26,790 bases of DNA from Woeseiaceae bacterium (GCA_036444875.1 JAZFPY010000157.1:1-26790), one strand, 5' to 3'; shown: positions 3,143 to 23,783, counted from the first letter of the stretch. The notes: generated by a model from the letters alone, not told the origin. A program made the numbers and translations.

Positions 3143-3206
3143 ATCGTAGGAACTGTCCGACCGCCATGGATGGCGGGAGTGCAGGTGTTGCAGGAGTATT
3201 CACCTG
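3143..3206 (+). repeat. Copy A of a REP-derived element with two GGA-loop hairpins
   Basis: 59/64 nt identical to the reverse complement of 22163-22226 (hand alignment). Hairpins CCGCCA-TGGA-TGGCGG (3161-3176) and GCAGGTG..TGC-AGGA-GTA..CACCTGC (3181-3207). The GTAGGAAC near its start matches the REP 5' end. Confidence 0.9.
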
Positions 3207-3220
3207 CCCACCGACCTGAT

Positions 3221-4678
3221 CTACCCGGTGCCACCGACAGTCAACTGGTCGATTTTCAAAGTAGGTTGACCGACACCGACCGGCACCGACTGTCCTTCCT
3301 TGCCGCAGGTACCAACACCACTATCGAGTTTGAGATCCGTACCGACCATCGAGATTTGGCCAAGCACAGCAGGACCGTCACCGATGAGCATTGCGCCTTT
3401 GACCGGAGCAGTCAGCTTTCCTTTCTCGATGAGATAAGCCTCGTTCACGGAGAAAACGAATTTGCCAGACGTAATGTCAACCTGGCCGCCGCCGAAGTTC
3501 GGCGCATAAATGCCCTTGTCAACCGAAGCAATGATCTCCTCGGGATCGTGCTTGCCTGCCAACATGTAAGTATTGGTCATGCGCGGCATCGGCATATGTG
3601 CAAAAGACTCGCGGCGGCCATTGCCGGTCGGTGCGACCCCCATCAAGCGTGCATTCAACTTATCCTGCATGTAGCCGCGAAGGATGCCGTTTTCGACCAG
3701 CACGTTGTACTGCCCCTGCGTGCCCTCGTCATCGACGGCAAGCGATCCACGACGATTCGCGAGTGTTCCGTCATCGACAATCGTGCAAAGCTTTGACGCA
3801 ACCTGCTCGCCGATCCGCCCGCTGAAAGCAGAAGTGCCTTTGCGGTTGAAGTCGCCTTCGAGCCCGTGACCGACAGCCTCATGAAGAAGAATGCCTGGCC
3901 AGCCGGGGCCAAGGACTACCGGCATCGTGCCGGCCGGTGCCGGCACTGCCTCCAGCTGCACAACTGCCTGCCGAACGGCGTCCCTCGCGTATTCCATCGG
4001 CAGATCGCTGCCAAGAAAATAATTCAGGTCGGCTCTCGCTCCGCCGCCCGCATAGCCTTGCTCACGGCGTCCGTTTTCCTCGATGATGACGCTGATATTC
4101 AGCCTCACCAGCGGTCGGACATCGGCTGCCAGCGTGCCGTCCGCGGCTGCGATCAAAATGAGATCCTGACTGCTGCTCAGACTGATAATGACCTGCTCGA
4201 TGCGTTTGTCCAGTTCGCGGATCTTTTTGTCAATATCACCGATCAATGCTGTCTTTTGTTGATCCTGGATACTCGTAATCGGGTCGAGTGCGGGGTACAG
4301 GTCCTGCCGTTCGCCGCGCGACCATGCCTGCACGGCCTTCGTCTGACCTTGTCGCGAAATCGCGCGTGCGGCTCCGGCGGCACGTTCGAGAGCGGGCAGC
4401 ATCAGTTCATCGGAATAGGCAAAGCCGGTCTTTTCGCCGCTCACGGCACGGACGCCGACACCCTGATCCAGGTTGAAGCTGCCTGCCTTGATGACGCCGT
4501 CTTCTACCGTCCAGCTTTCCTGGCGGCTAACCTGGAAATACAAATCGGCGATATCGATGTCTCGCCTCATGATGGATCCGAGCGCCCGGCTCAGGTGCCG
4601 CTCCTCAAGCCCTGCGGGTGCCAGCACGCGGGACATAACCGAATCTATCGCATTATCGTTATGGTGCGTGTCTGACAC
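3221..4678 (-). CDS. tldD: TldD metalloprotease subunit
   Basis: HExxxH motif [29 protein letters not shown] and C-terminal [16 protein letters not shown]. Preferred start is GTG 4678 (AAGGA upstream); the ORF is open to TTG 4696. Confidence 0.96.
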
Positions 4679-4741
4679 TCGTTGTTGTTCCTTCAATTAA
4701 AGCCGCGGTGGCGGCCTGGCTCGTTGTCAATTCATTACTCC

Positions 4742-18836: not shown

Positions 18837-18861
18837 GCAGGAACCCGTCCTGACGGGCGAT
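18837..18861 (+). repeat. REP-like palindrome, copy 1
   Basis: GCAGGAACCCGTC-CT-GACGGGCGAT: hairpin CCCGTC/GACGGG after a GYAG-type tag; 23/25 identical to 18887-18911. Confidence 0.85.
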
Positions 18862-18886: not shown

Positions 18887-18911
18887 GCAGGAGCCCGCCC
18901 TGACGGGCGAT
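18887..18911 (+). repeat. REP-like palindrome, copy 2
   Basis: GCAGGAGCCCGCCCTGACGGGCGAT, a direct repeat of copy 1 with a 50-nt period. It abuts the stop codon of the 18912-19133 ORF. Confidence 0.85.
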
Positions 18912-19134: not shown

Positions 19135-19635
19135 CTACAGTGAGGATAGCTGCTTCAGGACGATGCGAACCAAATCGTCGACGATAGCCTCTCGAAGCAG
19201 CTCTTCTTCTCTGGCTTTGCCAAGTACAAGCGTCTCATCGTATGTGTAATCCCTGGTCAGCGTCAGAGATTGCGGCGTCATTATCGTGTCGTTGCCGCTC
19301 TCCACGGAATAATAGATCGTGTAATAAACCTCGTACTCGCGCGGCACATTACGCGCTGAAACTGACAAGACCCGTCGATCAGTTTCGTCAGCCAGTATCG
19401 AGAAAACTGCGGACGATTTTGCAGGCGAATCGACAAGCTGCACGCCGGCGTTTCCTAATTCGTCCCGGAGCTTTCTGTAAAACTGGCTGTATCTGTCGTT
19501 TGCCGATATGTAGGTGCGTGACATCTCAGCTGGAATGTCGGGTGCAGCGCGTAGCTGAAATCCGCATGCGGCCAATCCGCATCCGGCCACGAGCACACCA
19601 AGCACGGTTACTAAGAATCGCCTAGACAACAACAT
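19135..19635 (-). CDS. lptE: LPS-assembly lipoprotein LptE
   Basis: Signal peptide with lipobox LAAC followed by GFQLR, and [15 protein letters not shown]; immediately after leuS with a 14-nt overlap. Confidence 0.93.
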
Positions 19636-22072
19636 TCACCAGGCGGCCCGGTACGACAATCGTCTTACGAACCGTCTTGTCCGCGACGAAGCGCTTGACG
19701 TTTTCGTCGGCAAGTGCCTGCGCGGAAATCGAGTCGGAATCTGCATCTACCGCCACCAAGATCCGGCTGCGCAATTTGCCATTGACTTGCACGACGATCT
19801 CAACCGTGTCCTGGGCGAGCGCAGATTCGTCAAAAACCGGCCAGCCTACGTTCACCGGTGCTGATTCGTGACCGAGCGCATGCCAGAGCTCGTGGCAGAC
19901 GTGGGGTATGACAGGCGACAGCACCAGCACAATGGCATCGAGTGCCTCCTGAACCACAGAGCGTCCCGCGCAAGACGAATCATCAAAACGCTTGATCGCA
20001 TTCAGCAATTCCATCGCCGCCGCAATTGCGGTGTTGAACTTGTAACGACGGCCAATATCGTCACTCACCTTTTGGATCGTCTGGTGTGTCTTCCGCCGGA
20101 GTGCGCGCTGCTTGTCATTGAGCGACTTCGGTTCAACCGCTACCGCATCGCCCGCCGACACGTGCTCATAAATTGAGTTCCACAAGCGCTTGAGAAAACG
20201 AAACGCACCCTGCACGCCTTCGTCGGACCACTCCAGCGACATCTCCGGCGGCGCCGTAGACATCATGAACAGCCTTACCGTGTCTGCTCCGTATTTCTCG
20301 ATGAGTTGTTGCGGATCGACCGTGTTGCCCTTCGCTTTCGACATCTTGGCGCCATCTTTGAGCACCATACCCTGAGTAAGCAGATTGGTGAAAGGCTCAT
20401 CCGCAGCCGACAATCCGAAGTCACGCATCACCTTCTGGAAAAAGCGCGCATACAACAGGTGATGAATCGCATGCTCGATGCCTCCTGTGTATTGATTGAC
20501 AGGCATCCAGTAACGCTCGCGCTCATCGAGCATGGCATCGTTGCTGTCCGGGCAGGCGTACCGCGAGAAATACCAGGACGATTCAACGAACGTGTCAAAG
20601 GTATCTGTCTCCCGGCGCGCCGCTTTGCCACATTTCGGACAGATGGCCTCGTAAAATTCCGGCATTTGCTTCAGCGGAGATCCGACACCTGTAAATTCGA
20701 CATCCTCCGGCAAGACGACAGGCAGCTGGTCCTCCGGAACCGGCACTGCATCGCAATCATCGCAATAGATAATCGGTATCGGCGCACCCCAGTAACGCTG
20801 ACGCGACACACCCCAGTCGCGCAGGCGATAATTCACCGTGCGCCTGCCGCGGCCTTCATCTTCGAACCGTTTTGCGATTGCGTCGAGAGCCTGATCGTAA
20901 TCGAGACCATCAAATTCTCCGGAATTGACTACGATGCCATACTCGACATAGGGACCTTTTGTGATATCGATTGAAGACCCATCGGCCGGCGTTATTACCT
21001 GCGTGATCGGCAGACCATGCTTGTCGGCAAATTCCCAATCGCGGGCGTCGTGCCCGGGCACGGCCATGACGGCGCCGGTACCGTAACTCATCAATACAAA
21101 GTTGGCCACCCAGAGCGGAATTTCTTCGCCGCTGATCGGGTGTATGGCGGAGATGCCAAGCGGCATGCCTTTCTTTTCCATCGTCTCGAGCATCGCTTCC
21201 GCTGCCTGCGTCCGTTTACACTCCTCGATAAACGCGGCGATGTCGGGGTTGTCAGCTGCTGTCTTTTGCGCGAGCGGATGCTCTGCTGCCACGGCCATGT
21301 AAGTGACTCCAAGCAACGTGTCGGGCCGCGTCGTAAATACGGTCAGTGGCTCGTCTTCACCTTTGACATCGAAAGCCAGCTCGATTCCCTCCGAACGGCC
21401 GATCCAGTTGCGCTGCATTGATTTGACTGATTCCGGCCAGCCGTCCAGGTGGTCGAGCTCATCCAGGAGTTCATCGGCATAAGCTGTGATGCTCATGAAC
21501 CACTGTGGTATCTCGCGCCGCTCAACGAGCGCGTCAGACCGCCAGCCGCGGCCGTCGATCACCTGTTCGTTGGCCAGTACAGTCTGATCGACCGGATCCC
21601 AGTTCACGACCGAGTTCTTGCGGTAGACGAGGCCCTTTTCAAACATCTTCGTGAACAGCCACTGTTCCCAGCGATAGTATTCCGGGCGACAGGTTGTTAT
21701 TTCGCGTGTCCAGTCATAACCGTAACCCAACCGCTTAAGCTGGCCACGCATGTATTCAATGTTCTTGTAGGTCCATTTTGCCGGCGGCACGCCGCGCTGG
21801 ATCGCGGCGTTTTCGGCAGGCATGCCGAACGCGTCCCAACCCATCGGCTGCAGAACGTGCTTGCCCTGCATGCGTTGATATCGAGCGATGACATCGCTGA
21901 TCGTCAGTACACGAACATGCCCCATGTGTAGCTGACCGCTGGGGTAGGGAAACATTGTCAGACAATAGAACTTGTCTTTTTGCGGGTCTTCGCCAACCTC
22001 AAATGTCCGCTCCTTGTCCCAGAATTCGCGGGCGCTTTGTTCGACGGTTTCGGCGTTATAACTGGCGTCCAT
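19622..22072 (-). CDS. leuS: Leucine-tRNA ligase
   Basis: MFPYPSG.LHMGH, GWDAFG, CP1 editing motifs TTRPDT and [23 protein letters not shown], and a KMSK(A) loop. Confidence 0.98.
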
Positions 22073-22148
22073 TCAGTCGTTCAATCCGCTTTGAGTTTAG
22101 GCCTACAAAAACCGGAAGGATATCTGGTTCTGCCTTCGTTCGCAGCAG

Positions 22149-22226
22149 AATCGCCCGTCAGACAGCTGAATGCTCCTGCAACACCTACACTCCCGCCATC
22201 CATGGCGGTCGGACAGCTCCAACGAT
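22149..22226 (-). repeat. Copy B: a REP whose 2-nt loop is expanded by a 50-nt two-GGA-hairpin cassette
   Basis: - strand: GTTGGAGC-TGTC-C-[GACCGCCATGGATGGCGGGAGTGTAGGTGTTGCAGGAGCATTCAGCTGTC]-T-GACGGGCGATT. The flanks equal the two arms of the REP at 18837/18887/22240. 59/64 identical to 3143-3206. Confidence 0.9.
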
Positions 22227-22239
22227 TCTATTGTCACCT

Positions 22240-22264
22240 GTTGGAGCCCGTCAGGACGGGCGAA
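22240..22264 (+). repeat. REP-like palindrome, copy 3, overlapping the lnt stop codon
   Basis: GTTGGAGCCCGTC-AG-GACGGGCGAA with a perfect 7-bp stem. Its reverse complement encodes the last lnt codons and the TGA. Confidence 0.88.
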
Positions 22265-23783
22265 ATTTTTCTCGCCAGGTAAACCAGACAAGAATTCCGC
22301 ACAGCAACGTTATGACCGGCCAGTTTCCGGTTCGCACATACGGCGTTGAGCCCGTGTACGGGATGACATCTATTGTCATCGTCGCACTCTCGAACTGCGG
22401 TGCTATATCGAGCAATTCCCCTTTGGGCCCGATGAATGCGCTGAGCCCGGTATTGGTCGCCCTGACAACGTAGCGGCCCGCTTCGAGTGCACGCATGCGT
22501 GCGATCTCGAGATGCTGGTGCGGCGCAATGGAATCGCCGAACCAGGCATCGTTGCTGACGTTGATCAAAACGGTTGCCTCGGGAAGAGCATAGAGCTGCT
22601 CGGCACCGTAAGCGTCTTCGTAGCAGATTGCGACGGCGAGTTTATTACCACTTAGAGATTCGAGTAGGGGTTGCTCGTCGTCGCCAGCGCTCAGATCGCT
22701 GCTCGGCAAACTCATTAAACGCATCCATCGCCGCACGAAGTCCGGTACTGGAAAGAACTCGCCGAACGGCACGAGGTGACGTTTTCGGTAGATCTGCCGA
22801 TCGTGGCCATCAAGCATGACAACACTGTTATAGACTTTCTGTGATGCAGGGTTCCGTTCGAGGATGCCGAAAAGAAGCGTCTTCGGCTGTACCCGAAGAT
22901 CGGACTGCAGTACGCCGAGATATTTTTCGACCTGATCAAGCACGGCTGGAATGGCGACTTCGGGCCAGACGACCAGATCGCTTTGACGATGCTTCAGTGT
23001 TGCGTTCCGGTACAGATCAAGCGTTGGCTGAAACTGTTCGCGCAACCATTTTCGATCCTGCGAAATTCCACCTTGCACAATTGTGGTACGCAGTGACTGG
23101 TCCGTTGCTTTGGTCCATTGAACAGGCTGAAGTGCGGCACCGATGATCCACGGTGATATGGCGATGCCTACCGCTAGCCATCGCTGACGGCCGCTCATAA
23201 TTATCACAATAAGCAGCGCGGCCGAACTCAGAACGGTGAGTACGGACGTGCCGTAAATACCGACAAGCGGGACCCAGCCGGACAAAGGCGAATCGATTTG
23301 GCTGTAGCCGACGGCAAGCCAGGGAAATCCACTGAGAAACCAGCCGCGAAGCCACTCGATGCTGACCCATGCGGACGGTGCAATGATCAACATGCGCCAC
23401 GCATTGCCTTTGACGAGTCGTGCAATCATCCACCCAGCTGCCGAGCAGTAAGCCGCCATGATAAGGACGAGGCAAACCATGATGACAATTGCGACCCATA
23501 GAGGCGCCTGTCCAAAAACGTGAATCGAGATGTAAAGCCAGTATGTCCCGCTAAGAAACAATCCCGTGCCGTACCAGAATAGTTGTTTTGCCGCAGTGCG
23601 AGGCGGCGAGTTGAGGCAGGCAAACAAGACCGGTATCAAAAAAACCGGCATCAGGAAGTACAGGCGGAACGGTGCAAAGGTCAGCGTCGGCAGCACGCCG
23701 AATACGAAGAAGAAAAGTAGACTTACGCGTGGTCTGCTGTCGAAAAACTGCTGGACCTGATCAAGTTTGCGAATATCAGGCAC
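22251..23783 (-). CDS. lnt: Apolipoprotein N-acyltransferase
   Basis: Multiple TM segments, GFPW...GYSQ, and the nitrilase-fold triad WPE / YRKRHLVPFGE / ICYED. Confidence 0.96.
   Translation of the reverse strand: MPDIRKLDQVQQFFDSRPRVSLLFFFVFGVLPTLTFAPFRLYFLMPVFLIPVLFACLNSPPRTAAKQLFWYGTGLFLSGTYWLYISIHVFGQAPLWVAIVIMVCLVLIMAAYCSAAGWMIARLVKGNAWRMLIIAPSAWVSIEWLRGWFLSGFPWLAVGYSQIDSPLSGWVPLVGIYGTSVLTVLSSAALLIVIIMSGRQRWLAVGIAISPWIIGAALQPVQWTKATDQSLRTTIVQGGISQDRKWLREQFQPTLDLYRNATLKHRQSDLVVWPEVAIPAVLDQVEKYLGVLQSDLRVQPKTLLFGILERNPASQKVYNSVVMLDGHDRQIYRKRHLVPFGEFFPVPDFVRRWMRLMSLPSSDLSAGDDEQPLLESLSGNKLAVAICYEDAYGAEQLYALPEATVLINVSNDAWFGDSIAPHQHLEIARMRALEAGRYVVRATNTGLSAFIGPKGELLDIAPQFESATMTIDVIPYTGSTPYVRTGNWPVITLLCGILVWFTWREKFRPS

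Follow-up and report, generated by a model that had tools for sequence, protein, structure and literature searches.

What is the element at positions 22149..22226 (- strand) of the window, where a REP palindrome carries fifty additional nucleotides between the two bases of its loop? The window, i.e. the whole 26,790-nt stretch of DNA analysed here (Woeseiaceae bacterium, GCA_036444875.1 JAZFPY010000157.1:1-26790), is contig C157 of a MAG of 1.75 Mb in 341 contigs (77 % complete, 56 % GC, 4.4 % contamination), hereafter G000. The initial annotation had suggested that this locus may be a composite non-autonomous element that distributes CsrA/RsmA-type binding sites around the genome. Its observation was confirmed and proved understated; its interpretation was partly supported.

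The composite repeat between lnt and leuS

Read on the - strand from 22226 to 22149, the sequence is ATCGTTGGAGCTGTC-C-[GACCGCCATGGATGGCGGGAGTGTAGGTGTTGCAGGAGCATTCAGCTGTC]-T-GACGGGCGATT. It consists of a GTAG head with the left REP arm (22226-22212), a 50-nt cassette beginning with GAC and ending with GTC (22210..22161), which sits between the loop bases C and T of the REP exactly as initially annotated, and the right REP arm (22159-22149). The covariance model matched positions 22159-22212 with 64 bits. The arms had been described as those of the plain REP; such arms do flank the insert, but the left one reads GC-TGTC and not GCCCGTC.

Two hairpins make up the cassette, both on the - strand. 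Hairpin 1 with its linker (22175..22208) is CCGCCA-UGGA-UGGCGG followed by GAGUG, and its closing pair 5-20 covaries in the alignment. Hairpin 2 (22161..22186) displays UGC-AGGA-GCA atop an outer stem. In the window copy this outer stem is degenerate (GUAGGUG/CAGCUGU, the genus consensus being GCAGGUG/CACCUGC), and with two mutations in stem 2 the copy's own minimum-energy fold was not significant (z -0.97). An intact copy from the same genome (G000:C126:1375-1452) folded as a closing stem formed by the REP arms plus hairpins 1 and 2, at -34.1 kcal/mol (z -2.8). The two hairpins named initially are those of the family consensus.

The composite is flanked by lnt (22251-23783) and leuS (19622-22072), both on the - strand, so that the GGA strand is the sense strand at this site. 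A plain REP, TGTTGGAGCCCGTCAGGACGGGCGAA, was found by the pattern census at 22240..22265 on the + strand, i.e. inverted with respect to the composite, twelve bases upstream of it and overlapping the stop codon region of lnt; it scored as terminator-like on the + strand. Together, both repeats form a REPIN-like doublet. The loop of this plain REP (22243-22263) is AG, versus CT in some 60 other copies oriented by their GTAG head, and looks as if it had been inverted between its arms.

A second version of the same site was available from contig C231, which is 92-94 % identical to window positions 19135-22880 and was binned in the same MAG, so that the bin mixes two related populations. Between lnt and leuS, C231 displays a decayed REP and a plain REP whose right junction, GGGCGATT/CTGCTGCG, is identical to that of the window composite. 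Plain REP and cassette-bearing REP are alternatives at one orthologous site. As the left arm also differs between C231 and the window, replacement or conversion looks likelier than a clean fresh insertion. The corresponding site consists of a short spacer devoid of repeats in the congeners G001, G002 and G004, and of unrelated REP debris in the sister species G003.

The carrier REP

The consensus of the plain REP, derived from 69 orientable copies, is GT(A/T)GGAGCCCGTC-CT-GACGGGCGA(T), with a loop that is nearly always CT. The pattern GGAGCCCGTC-NN-GACGGGCGA was encountered 63 times in G000 at one mismatch or less, while the reversed-pattern control gave 0; a looser regex census returned about 100 palindrome cores. 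Many REP pairs of this genome lie on opposite strands, 46-56 nt apart. The window also harbors two plain REPs of the same family in tandem orientation on the + strand, at 18840-18860 and 18890-18910, separated by 50 nt. Within the genus, REPs were abundant only in G000 (63) and G003 (31), as compared with one to three in G001, G002 and G004.

These are the properties of GTAG-tagged REPs, the REP/BIME/REPIN elements associated with RAYT (TnpA-REP) Y1 transposases (Di Nocera et al. 2013, PMC3733652). The REP of this genome is a genuine and typical member: a 25-nt imperfect palindrome with a GTAG-like end, intergenic, present in 60-100 copies and arranged in inverted doublets and clusters. It is, however, no integral part of the element under study but its carrier, because the cassette occupies another carrier in the same genome (contig C290, see below).

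Copies within the genus

The second copy reported in the window was found again at 3143..3215 on the + strand (covariance model match, 65.6 bits). Over 64 nt (3143-3206) it is 92 % identical to the composite at 22149-22226 (59/64). Head, left arm and cassette are intact, and the right REP arm has decayed (CCCACCGACC). This copy lies just past the stop of tldD/pmbA (3221-4696, - strand), downstream of it and antisense to it. At this site G003 keeps a remnant of the cassette with a 41-nt internal deletion, and G001, G002 and G004 are empty. The copy predates the split between G000 and G003, and it is decaying.

Far more than these two copies exist. BLAST and covariance model R1, built from alignment A1, together revealed 14-16 cassettes in G000 and about 20 in G003; in G001, G002 and G004 the model matched at noise level only. 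The consensus of the composite in the genus is GT(A/T)GGAGC-TGTC / CGAC CGCCATGGATGGCGG GAGTG CAGGTGTTGCAGGAGCATTCACCTG C / CT GACGGGCGAT, the slashes separating arms and cassette. Nearly all copies of both species share the derived left arm C-TGTC in place of CCCGTC, which indicates that REP and cassette spread as a unit in this genus and were not assembled anew each time. The initial reading as a composite, non-autonomous, multi-copy element, with REP arms surrounding an inserted cassette, was supported.

Two further loci, G000:C271:1532-1606 and G000:C159:289-364, display an inverted REP fused to a cassette that is truncated in the hairpin 1 loop. Both have the same junction (…CTCCAACA/GATGGCGG…), and this fusion is a second composite form that was likewise copied.

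Structure, conservation and subfamilies

The general layout of the cassette is CGCCAUGGAUGGCG, a short linker and a covarying stem capped by GCAGGAGCA, over a length of ~47-50 nt. Among 45 dereplicated sequences, nine of the 11 pairs of helix 2 had changed on both sides. Compensated cells amounted to 105, versus 39 ± 5.5 in shuffles (reached in 0/500), and helices slid out of register were 29-53 % paired as compared with 87.6 % in the true register. An unpaired A directly after GCAGGAGC was also conserved. Helix 1 and the loop of hairpin 2 were fixed by the search pattern, for which reason their invariance in this set carries no meaning.

More informative were copies retrieved via hairpin 2 alone. 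Their hairpin 1 stems were entirely different while the loop remained the same, as in the subfamilies UUACA-(A/G/U)GGA-UGUAA from Methylotuvimicrobium sp. KM1 and CUGCA-GGGA-UGCAG from G003 and contig C272 of G000. With stems swapped and the loop kept, the constant features at the family level are CA-NGGA-UG (hairpin 1) and GC-AGGA-GC-A (hairpin 2), and conservation across the family is highest in the GGA loops.

A different picture emerged within the genus. Among 28 copies, divergence per position was 4.7 % in the cassette versus 12-16 % in the REP arms, i.e. about three times less, which could reflect selection on the cassette in each copy. The GGA positions themselves had changed in seven of 168 cells (4.2 %), versus 4.7 % in the rest of the cassette.

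The extremities of the cassette can be read as CGAC...CUGC or as GAC...CUGCC owing to a run of C; GAC...GTC between the loop bases represents the second reading.

Some loci displayed unusual arrangements. On the - strand of G000:C272 (~4100-4330; locus L211), 5.1 copies of a 19-nt unit with the hairpin CUGCA-GGGA-UGCAG are followed by 4.3 copies of a 28-nt unit with the hairpin GCAAC-GCAGGAGCG-GUUGC. This array, located near a contig end, accumulates at least nine GGA loops in ~230 nt and has a CsrB/RsmZ-like architecture. It gave no Rfam match and was rejected as a conserved Csr-type sRNA gene, not being conserved as an array in the congeners and having no obvious terminator by eye. Two G003 loci (L212:~1500-1560 and L213:~1500-1560) harbor yet another cassette subfamily, CGCACGACTGCAGGGATGCAGGAGGTAGAGCGAAGCAGGATGCC, each loop of which again contains GGA.

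Distribution among Gammaproteobacteria

Similar motifs in other gammaproteobacteria had been suspected initially, and they turned out to be numerous. Among 60 relatives, strong matches were patchy (G003; G008, G034 and G046; G016 and G040; G026; G045; G058; G054) and scattered over other genera of the host's family and order. A wide scan of one genome per species with the exact pattern CGCCATGGATGGCG-N9-22-GCAGGAGC detected the cassette in at least 119 DNA stretches, whereas about one chance match was expected as calculated from pattern length and collection size. Among the matches listed, all named records were Gammaproteobacteria or unclassified Pseudomonadota/Proteobacteria MAGs. Hosts among these listed matches included Microbulbifer, Thalassolituus, Marinobacterium, Marinobacter, Saccharospirillum, Halopseudomonas, Zobellella, Oceanisphaera, Pseudoalteromonas, Methylotuvimicrobium, Methylomicrobium, Methylobacter, Stenotrophomonas, Luteimonas, Rudaea, Woeseia, Acidiferrobacterales, Chromatiales, Sedimenticola and some MAGs labelled Enterobacteriaceae.

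High copy numbers, as matches of the covariance model, were displayed by Methylotuvimicrobium buryatense 5G (at least 151), Methylotuvimicrobium sp. KM1 (at least 144), Marinobacterium aestuariivivens (at least 137) and a Ca. Spongiihabitans chromosome (at least 89). No match was found in complete genomes of E. coli or in PLSDB plasmids.

This distribution bears on the trivial explanation that the cassette is a chance similarity, or an artefact of assembly or binning. The fragmentation of G000 (341 contigs), its 4.4 % contamination and the co-binned relative C231 would be in line with an artefact. The cassette was nevertheless present in complete isolate chromosomes (Methylotuvimicrobium sp. 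KM1, Methylomicrobium sp. wino1 and S. maltophilia ZSL2493) and in reads of independent RNA libraries, well beyond the single match expected by chance, and this explanation can practically be set aside.

No Rfam family matched the cassette, neither in the window at gathering score nor in nine loci at permissive E-values. No description of it was found in the searchable literature, nor anything relevant on CsrA together with REP or with MITE. The cassette is apparently an undescribed two-hairpin DNA repeat, the nearest published kinds being REP/BIME/REPIN and YPAL/RU-2.

Location in hairpin loops

The position of the cassette in its surroundings was the same wherever it was encountered: in every case it occupies the loop of a larger hairpin, be it a lineage-specific REP, a YPAL-like element or another cassette. 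In other genomes it is found between the arms of their own GTAG REPs, the stems of which differ by lineage (GCCCGC/GCGGGC in G008 and GCCCGTC/GACGGGC in G000; also in Microbulbifer and others). The YPAL-like carrier was encountered on contig C290, in locus L101 and in some 20 other loci. On one contig, L101 harbors two YPAL-like hairpins, of which one is empty (GCCGCCA-UCCC-UGGCGGC, loop UCCC) and the other filled (GCCGCCAUC/50 nt/CCUGGCGGC, i.e. UC/50 nt/CC). In G000, YPAL-like carriers are empty on C64 and C186 and filled on C290, where a compensated pair in stem 2 sets the cassette apart from the REP-borne one.

Cassettes also reside in each other. They were found in the AGGA loop of other cassettes (GCA/.../GGAGC), in either orientation and with up to three levels of nesting, and head-to-tail tandem runs were present as well. 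Three-level nesting was observed in L209 (Methylotuvimicrobium sp. KM1, 5027610-5027920) and L094:6337-6604 (M. buryatense), which include an inner copy reversed inside GCAGG/AGC.

The preference for hairpins was quantified on the matches listed: flanking sequences closed a helix of at least 6 bp in 71 out of 118 cases, versus 27.7 ± 4.7 for shuffled partners, and a helix of at least 8 bp in 30 out of 118, versus 3.0 ± 1.6. Thousands of RNA reads displayed joints skipping 47-50 nt, corresponding to empty forms elsewhere in the genome. No target duplication was observed in the pairs of empty and filled sites. A classical MITE was therefore rejected, also because the ends (GAC... / ...CUGCC) are not inverted repeats.

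The feature at 22149..22226 is best explained as one copy of a small non-autonomous mobile DNA module that inserts into hairpin loops and has a REP as its carrier here, a reading to which a probability of roughly 0.62 is given. Such a module would consist of ~47-50 nt comprising hairpin 1 (loop CA-NGGA-UG) and hairpin 2 (loop GC-AGGA-GC-A), and would enter the apical loop of pre-existing DNA hairpins without duplicating its target. In the present genus it may have landed in the CT loop of a resident GTAG-type REP; the resulting composite would then have multiplied as a unit, or spread via conversion between REPs, in the two sister species.

Comparison with known repeats and RNAs

Like REPs, the cassette is a short, non-coding hairpin repeat that was amplified in a lineage-specific manner and whose mobilisation presumably occurs in trans; BIMEs, too, combine REPs with other short motifs into mosaics. 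It differs from REPs in lacking a GTAG head of its own and in having two hairpins instead of one palindrome. Its sequence is conserved across orders, whereas REPs are species-specific. Moreover, its place is within the REP loop and not next to REPs, it nests in itself, and no cognate RAYT flanked by the cassette was found.

Several insertion sequences target REPs or REP loops, among them IS1397/ISKpn1 and the IS110-family elements ISPpu9/10 and IS621. These are kilobase-sized and encode a transposase, whereas the cassette is a 50-nt non-coding module.

YPAL/RU-2 elements of Yersinia (Rfam Ysr224, RF02770; De Gregorio et al. 2006, as cited in PMC2229807) are reported to insert at or beside regions of dyad symmetry (PMC2229807). 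They measure ~168 bp and make target duplications of 3-26 bp. The second carrier of the cassette is YPAL-like, with a weak Ysr224 match (26 bits versus a gathering score of 70; motif ACGCCGUGAAUACAUCCAUGUAGGCUCG). The cassette itself has no Ysr224 match, measures 50 nt and makes no target duplication. Only the carrier aligning with RF02770, and this below its gathering score, the cassette was rejected as a member of YPAL/RU-2.

The TwoAYGGAY RNA motif (RF01731; Weinberg et al. 2010, PMC2864571) likewise has two hairpins and occurs in Gammaproteobacteria, and the hairpin 1 loop AUGGAU of the cassette fits AYGGAY. The loop of hairpin 2 does not, being AGGA within GCAGGAGCA. With no RF01731 match on cassette loci at E-values up to 10, this candidate was also discarded.

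CsrB, CsrC, RsmX/Y/Z and SELEX ligands of CsrA resemble the cassette in presenting GGA in hairpin loops at two sites, and hairpin 1 fits their high-affinity consensus. The cassette is, however, no discrete sRNA gene: it lacks a promoter and a terminator of its own, is found in both orientations and matches no Rfam family.

Resemblance to CsrA ligands, gene context and transcription

This resemblance raised a rival reading, namely that the cassette is kept since its RNA binds the CsrA/RsmA dimer via the two GGA loops, the copies acting as cis-regulatory modules or as a sponge. It does not exclude the mobile module, since selection would then act on CsrA binding, with mobility as the means. The SELEX consensus of CsrA is RUACARGGAUGU (PMC4347634). 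The hairpin 1 loop C-AUGGAU-G fits its core, and the KM1 subfamily UUACAAGGAUGUAA matches it except at the first position; hairpin 2 presents GC-AGGA-GC. Both GGAs are ~26 nt apart. Such a spacing is within the range that a CsrA dimer can bridge. The constancy of the loops while hairpin 1 stems were swapped (CGCCA, UUACA, CUGCA) and hairpin 2 stems covaried speaks in the same direction, as do the better conservation of the cassette than of its REP arms within the genus, the gammaproteobacterial or unclassified pseudomonadotal affiliation of all named hosts among the matches listed, and the C272 array with its repeated hairpins of the same two types. In addition, csrA was present in 28 out of 31 relatives, including all four congeners.

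A binding site acting in RNA should, on the other hand, show some preference relative to transcription, and none was found. Where neighbouring genes are in tandem, 23 cassettes were sense and 25 antisense among the matches listed, and non-tandem contexts were convergent in 20 and divergent in 22 of the listed cases; these orientations stem from a home-made ORF caller with cassettes masked, whose errors would weaken a bias but could scarcely abolish a strong one. The tandem contexts of G000 comprised four sense and two antisense copies. At a Methylotuvimicrobium locus, one stranded RNA-seq library yielded 20295 versus 19123 reads per strand in the repeat bins, where reads are pooled from all copies, and 0 versus ~12 on the two strands of the flanking genes. 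This single raw-read library was the informative one, since RNA-seq contigs show only that a region is present in RNA libraries.

Other indirect tests gave similar results. GGA was no better conserved than other cassette positions among the 28 genus copies. Stem mismatches of the G.U and A.C type numbered 32 versus 24 (p 0.35) with unbiased pairing, i.e. without an excess of G.U; an apparent asymmetry of 32:15, counted on alignment columns, was discarded as a clue to the folding strand after it fell to these values. Three of the four congeners possessing csrA have no cassette, and neither Rfam CsrB nor Rsm families matched at gathering score or at permissive E-values. A search for csrA and a RAYT-like gene had been recommended in the initial annotation: both were present in all four congeners, and neither was found in G000, which for csrA is weak counter-evidence at 77 % completeness.

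At the level of sequence the resemblance to CsrA ligands is real, but selection for it found no support in any of the four indirect tests. Retention of the cassette for CsrA binding is held to be rather improbable, and the role in distributing CsrA-type sites, as proposed initially, was not supported. The same low expectation applies to the combined form of this reading, in which the cassette would be a mobile high-affinity CsrA/RsmA binding module whose two-site ligands are scattered through gammaproteobacterial transcriptomes by transposition into loops. If it were true, the sense-transcribed half of the copies would titrate or redirect CsrA in genomes with at least 150 copies. A selfish repeat and a global RNA-binding protein would then have co-evolved, and CsrA rather than a transposase would explain the invariant loops.

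Single copies appear to decay neutrally and to be transcribed passively with their neighbours in either sense, as judged from the absence of gene-orientation bias, the equal amounts of RNA from both strands and the uniform decay. The close match of the invariant loops to the CsrA consensus is not predicted if the cassette is selfish DNA.

Alternatively, the cassette could be a host structural element like ordinary REPs, with loops bound by a factor other than CsrA or a transposase. It might act in RNA as an mRNA 3'-end stabiliser, as transcription or translation punctuation or as an RNase target, or in DNA by binding a nucleoid or topology protein (gyrase or IHF, for example). REPs have been credited with such roles (PMC3733652), and the cassette is intergenic, often ~70-200 nt from gene ends, transcribed along with its neighbours and able to form stable hairpins. 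This fits poorly with its being as frequent in divergent regions, on the promoter side, as in convergent ones and in one orientation as in the other, and with its patchy presence among close relatives; self-nesting and tandem pile-ups are the behaviour of selfish DNA. A structural host role is considered quite unlikely, more so than a role in CsrA binding.

Possible mobilisation of the cassette

For the loop-inserting mobile module, the preferred explanation, movement would depend on an enzyme acting in trans, most likely of the single-strand, hairpin-recognising HUH/Y1 type (RAYT or IS200/IS605 TnpA). The loops would stay invariant because this machinery, or a host factor, recognises them.

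If this explanation is correct, a class of very small mobile DNA common to Gammaproteobacteria has gone unrecognised, and a module entering the loops of repeats, its own copies included, builds layered intergenic palindromes that break assemblies. The cassette offers a concrete and tractable system to study how REP-like repeats move, particularly in M. buryatense, which is cultured, genetically workable and harbors at least 150 copies. With loops so near the CsrA consensus, it also permits a direct test of whether a selfish repeat feeds into a global post-transcriptional regulator. In annotation, hundreds of 'structured intergenic' matches that are neither riboswitches nor sRNA genes would moreover be explained by a covariance model of the cassette.

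The four high-copy genomes and the four congeners all possess genes of the Y1_Tnp type (RAYT-like); none was found in the 77 %-complete G000, nor in a genome with only six copies of the cassette. Ten Y1 genes were examined for nearby cassettes, and none had one within 1.5 kb. Four Y1 genes from three congeners, two of them belonging to the REP-rich G003, were examined for REP cores of the present type, and none had one within ~1.4 kb. The distribution of Y1 genes is compatible with mobilisation by an HUH enzyme and is no demonstration of it.

A strong lagging-strand bias is known for IS200/IS605 elements. On the complete chromosome of KM1, the GGA strand was leading in 69 of the 124 full-length copies and lagging in 55, which is not significant, with dnaA at position 0 and the terminus assumed at half the chromosome. 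On this assumption, no strong replication-orientation bias of the IS200/IS605 kind was apparent in KM1. Compared with an IS200/IS605-derived element (PATE), the two hairpins and the lack of target duplication fit, and the orientation is that just given for KM1, on the same assumed terminus.

The 830 ORFs surrounding the cassette in 119 loci were clustered among the matches listed; only generic families recurred (ABC ATPases, GGDEF/EAL, PilB-like ATPases and SDR), none of them enriched, and no transposase was found in cis. In five loci (L062, L077, L094, L122 and L134) the cassette lies ~70-500 nt from a gene for a PilB/PilT/MshE-type (T2SSE) ATPase, a proximity that is probably due to chance because this gene family is large.
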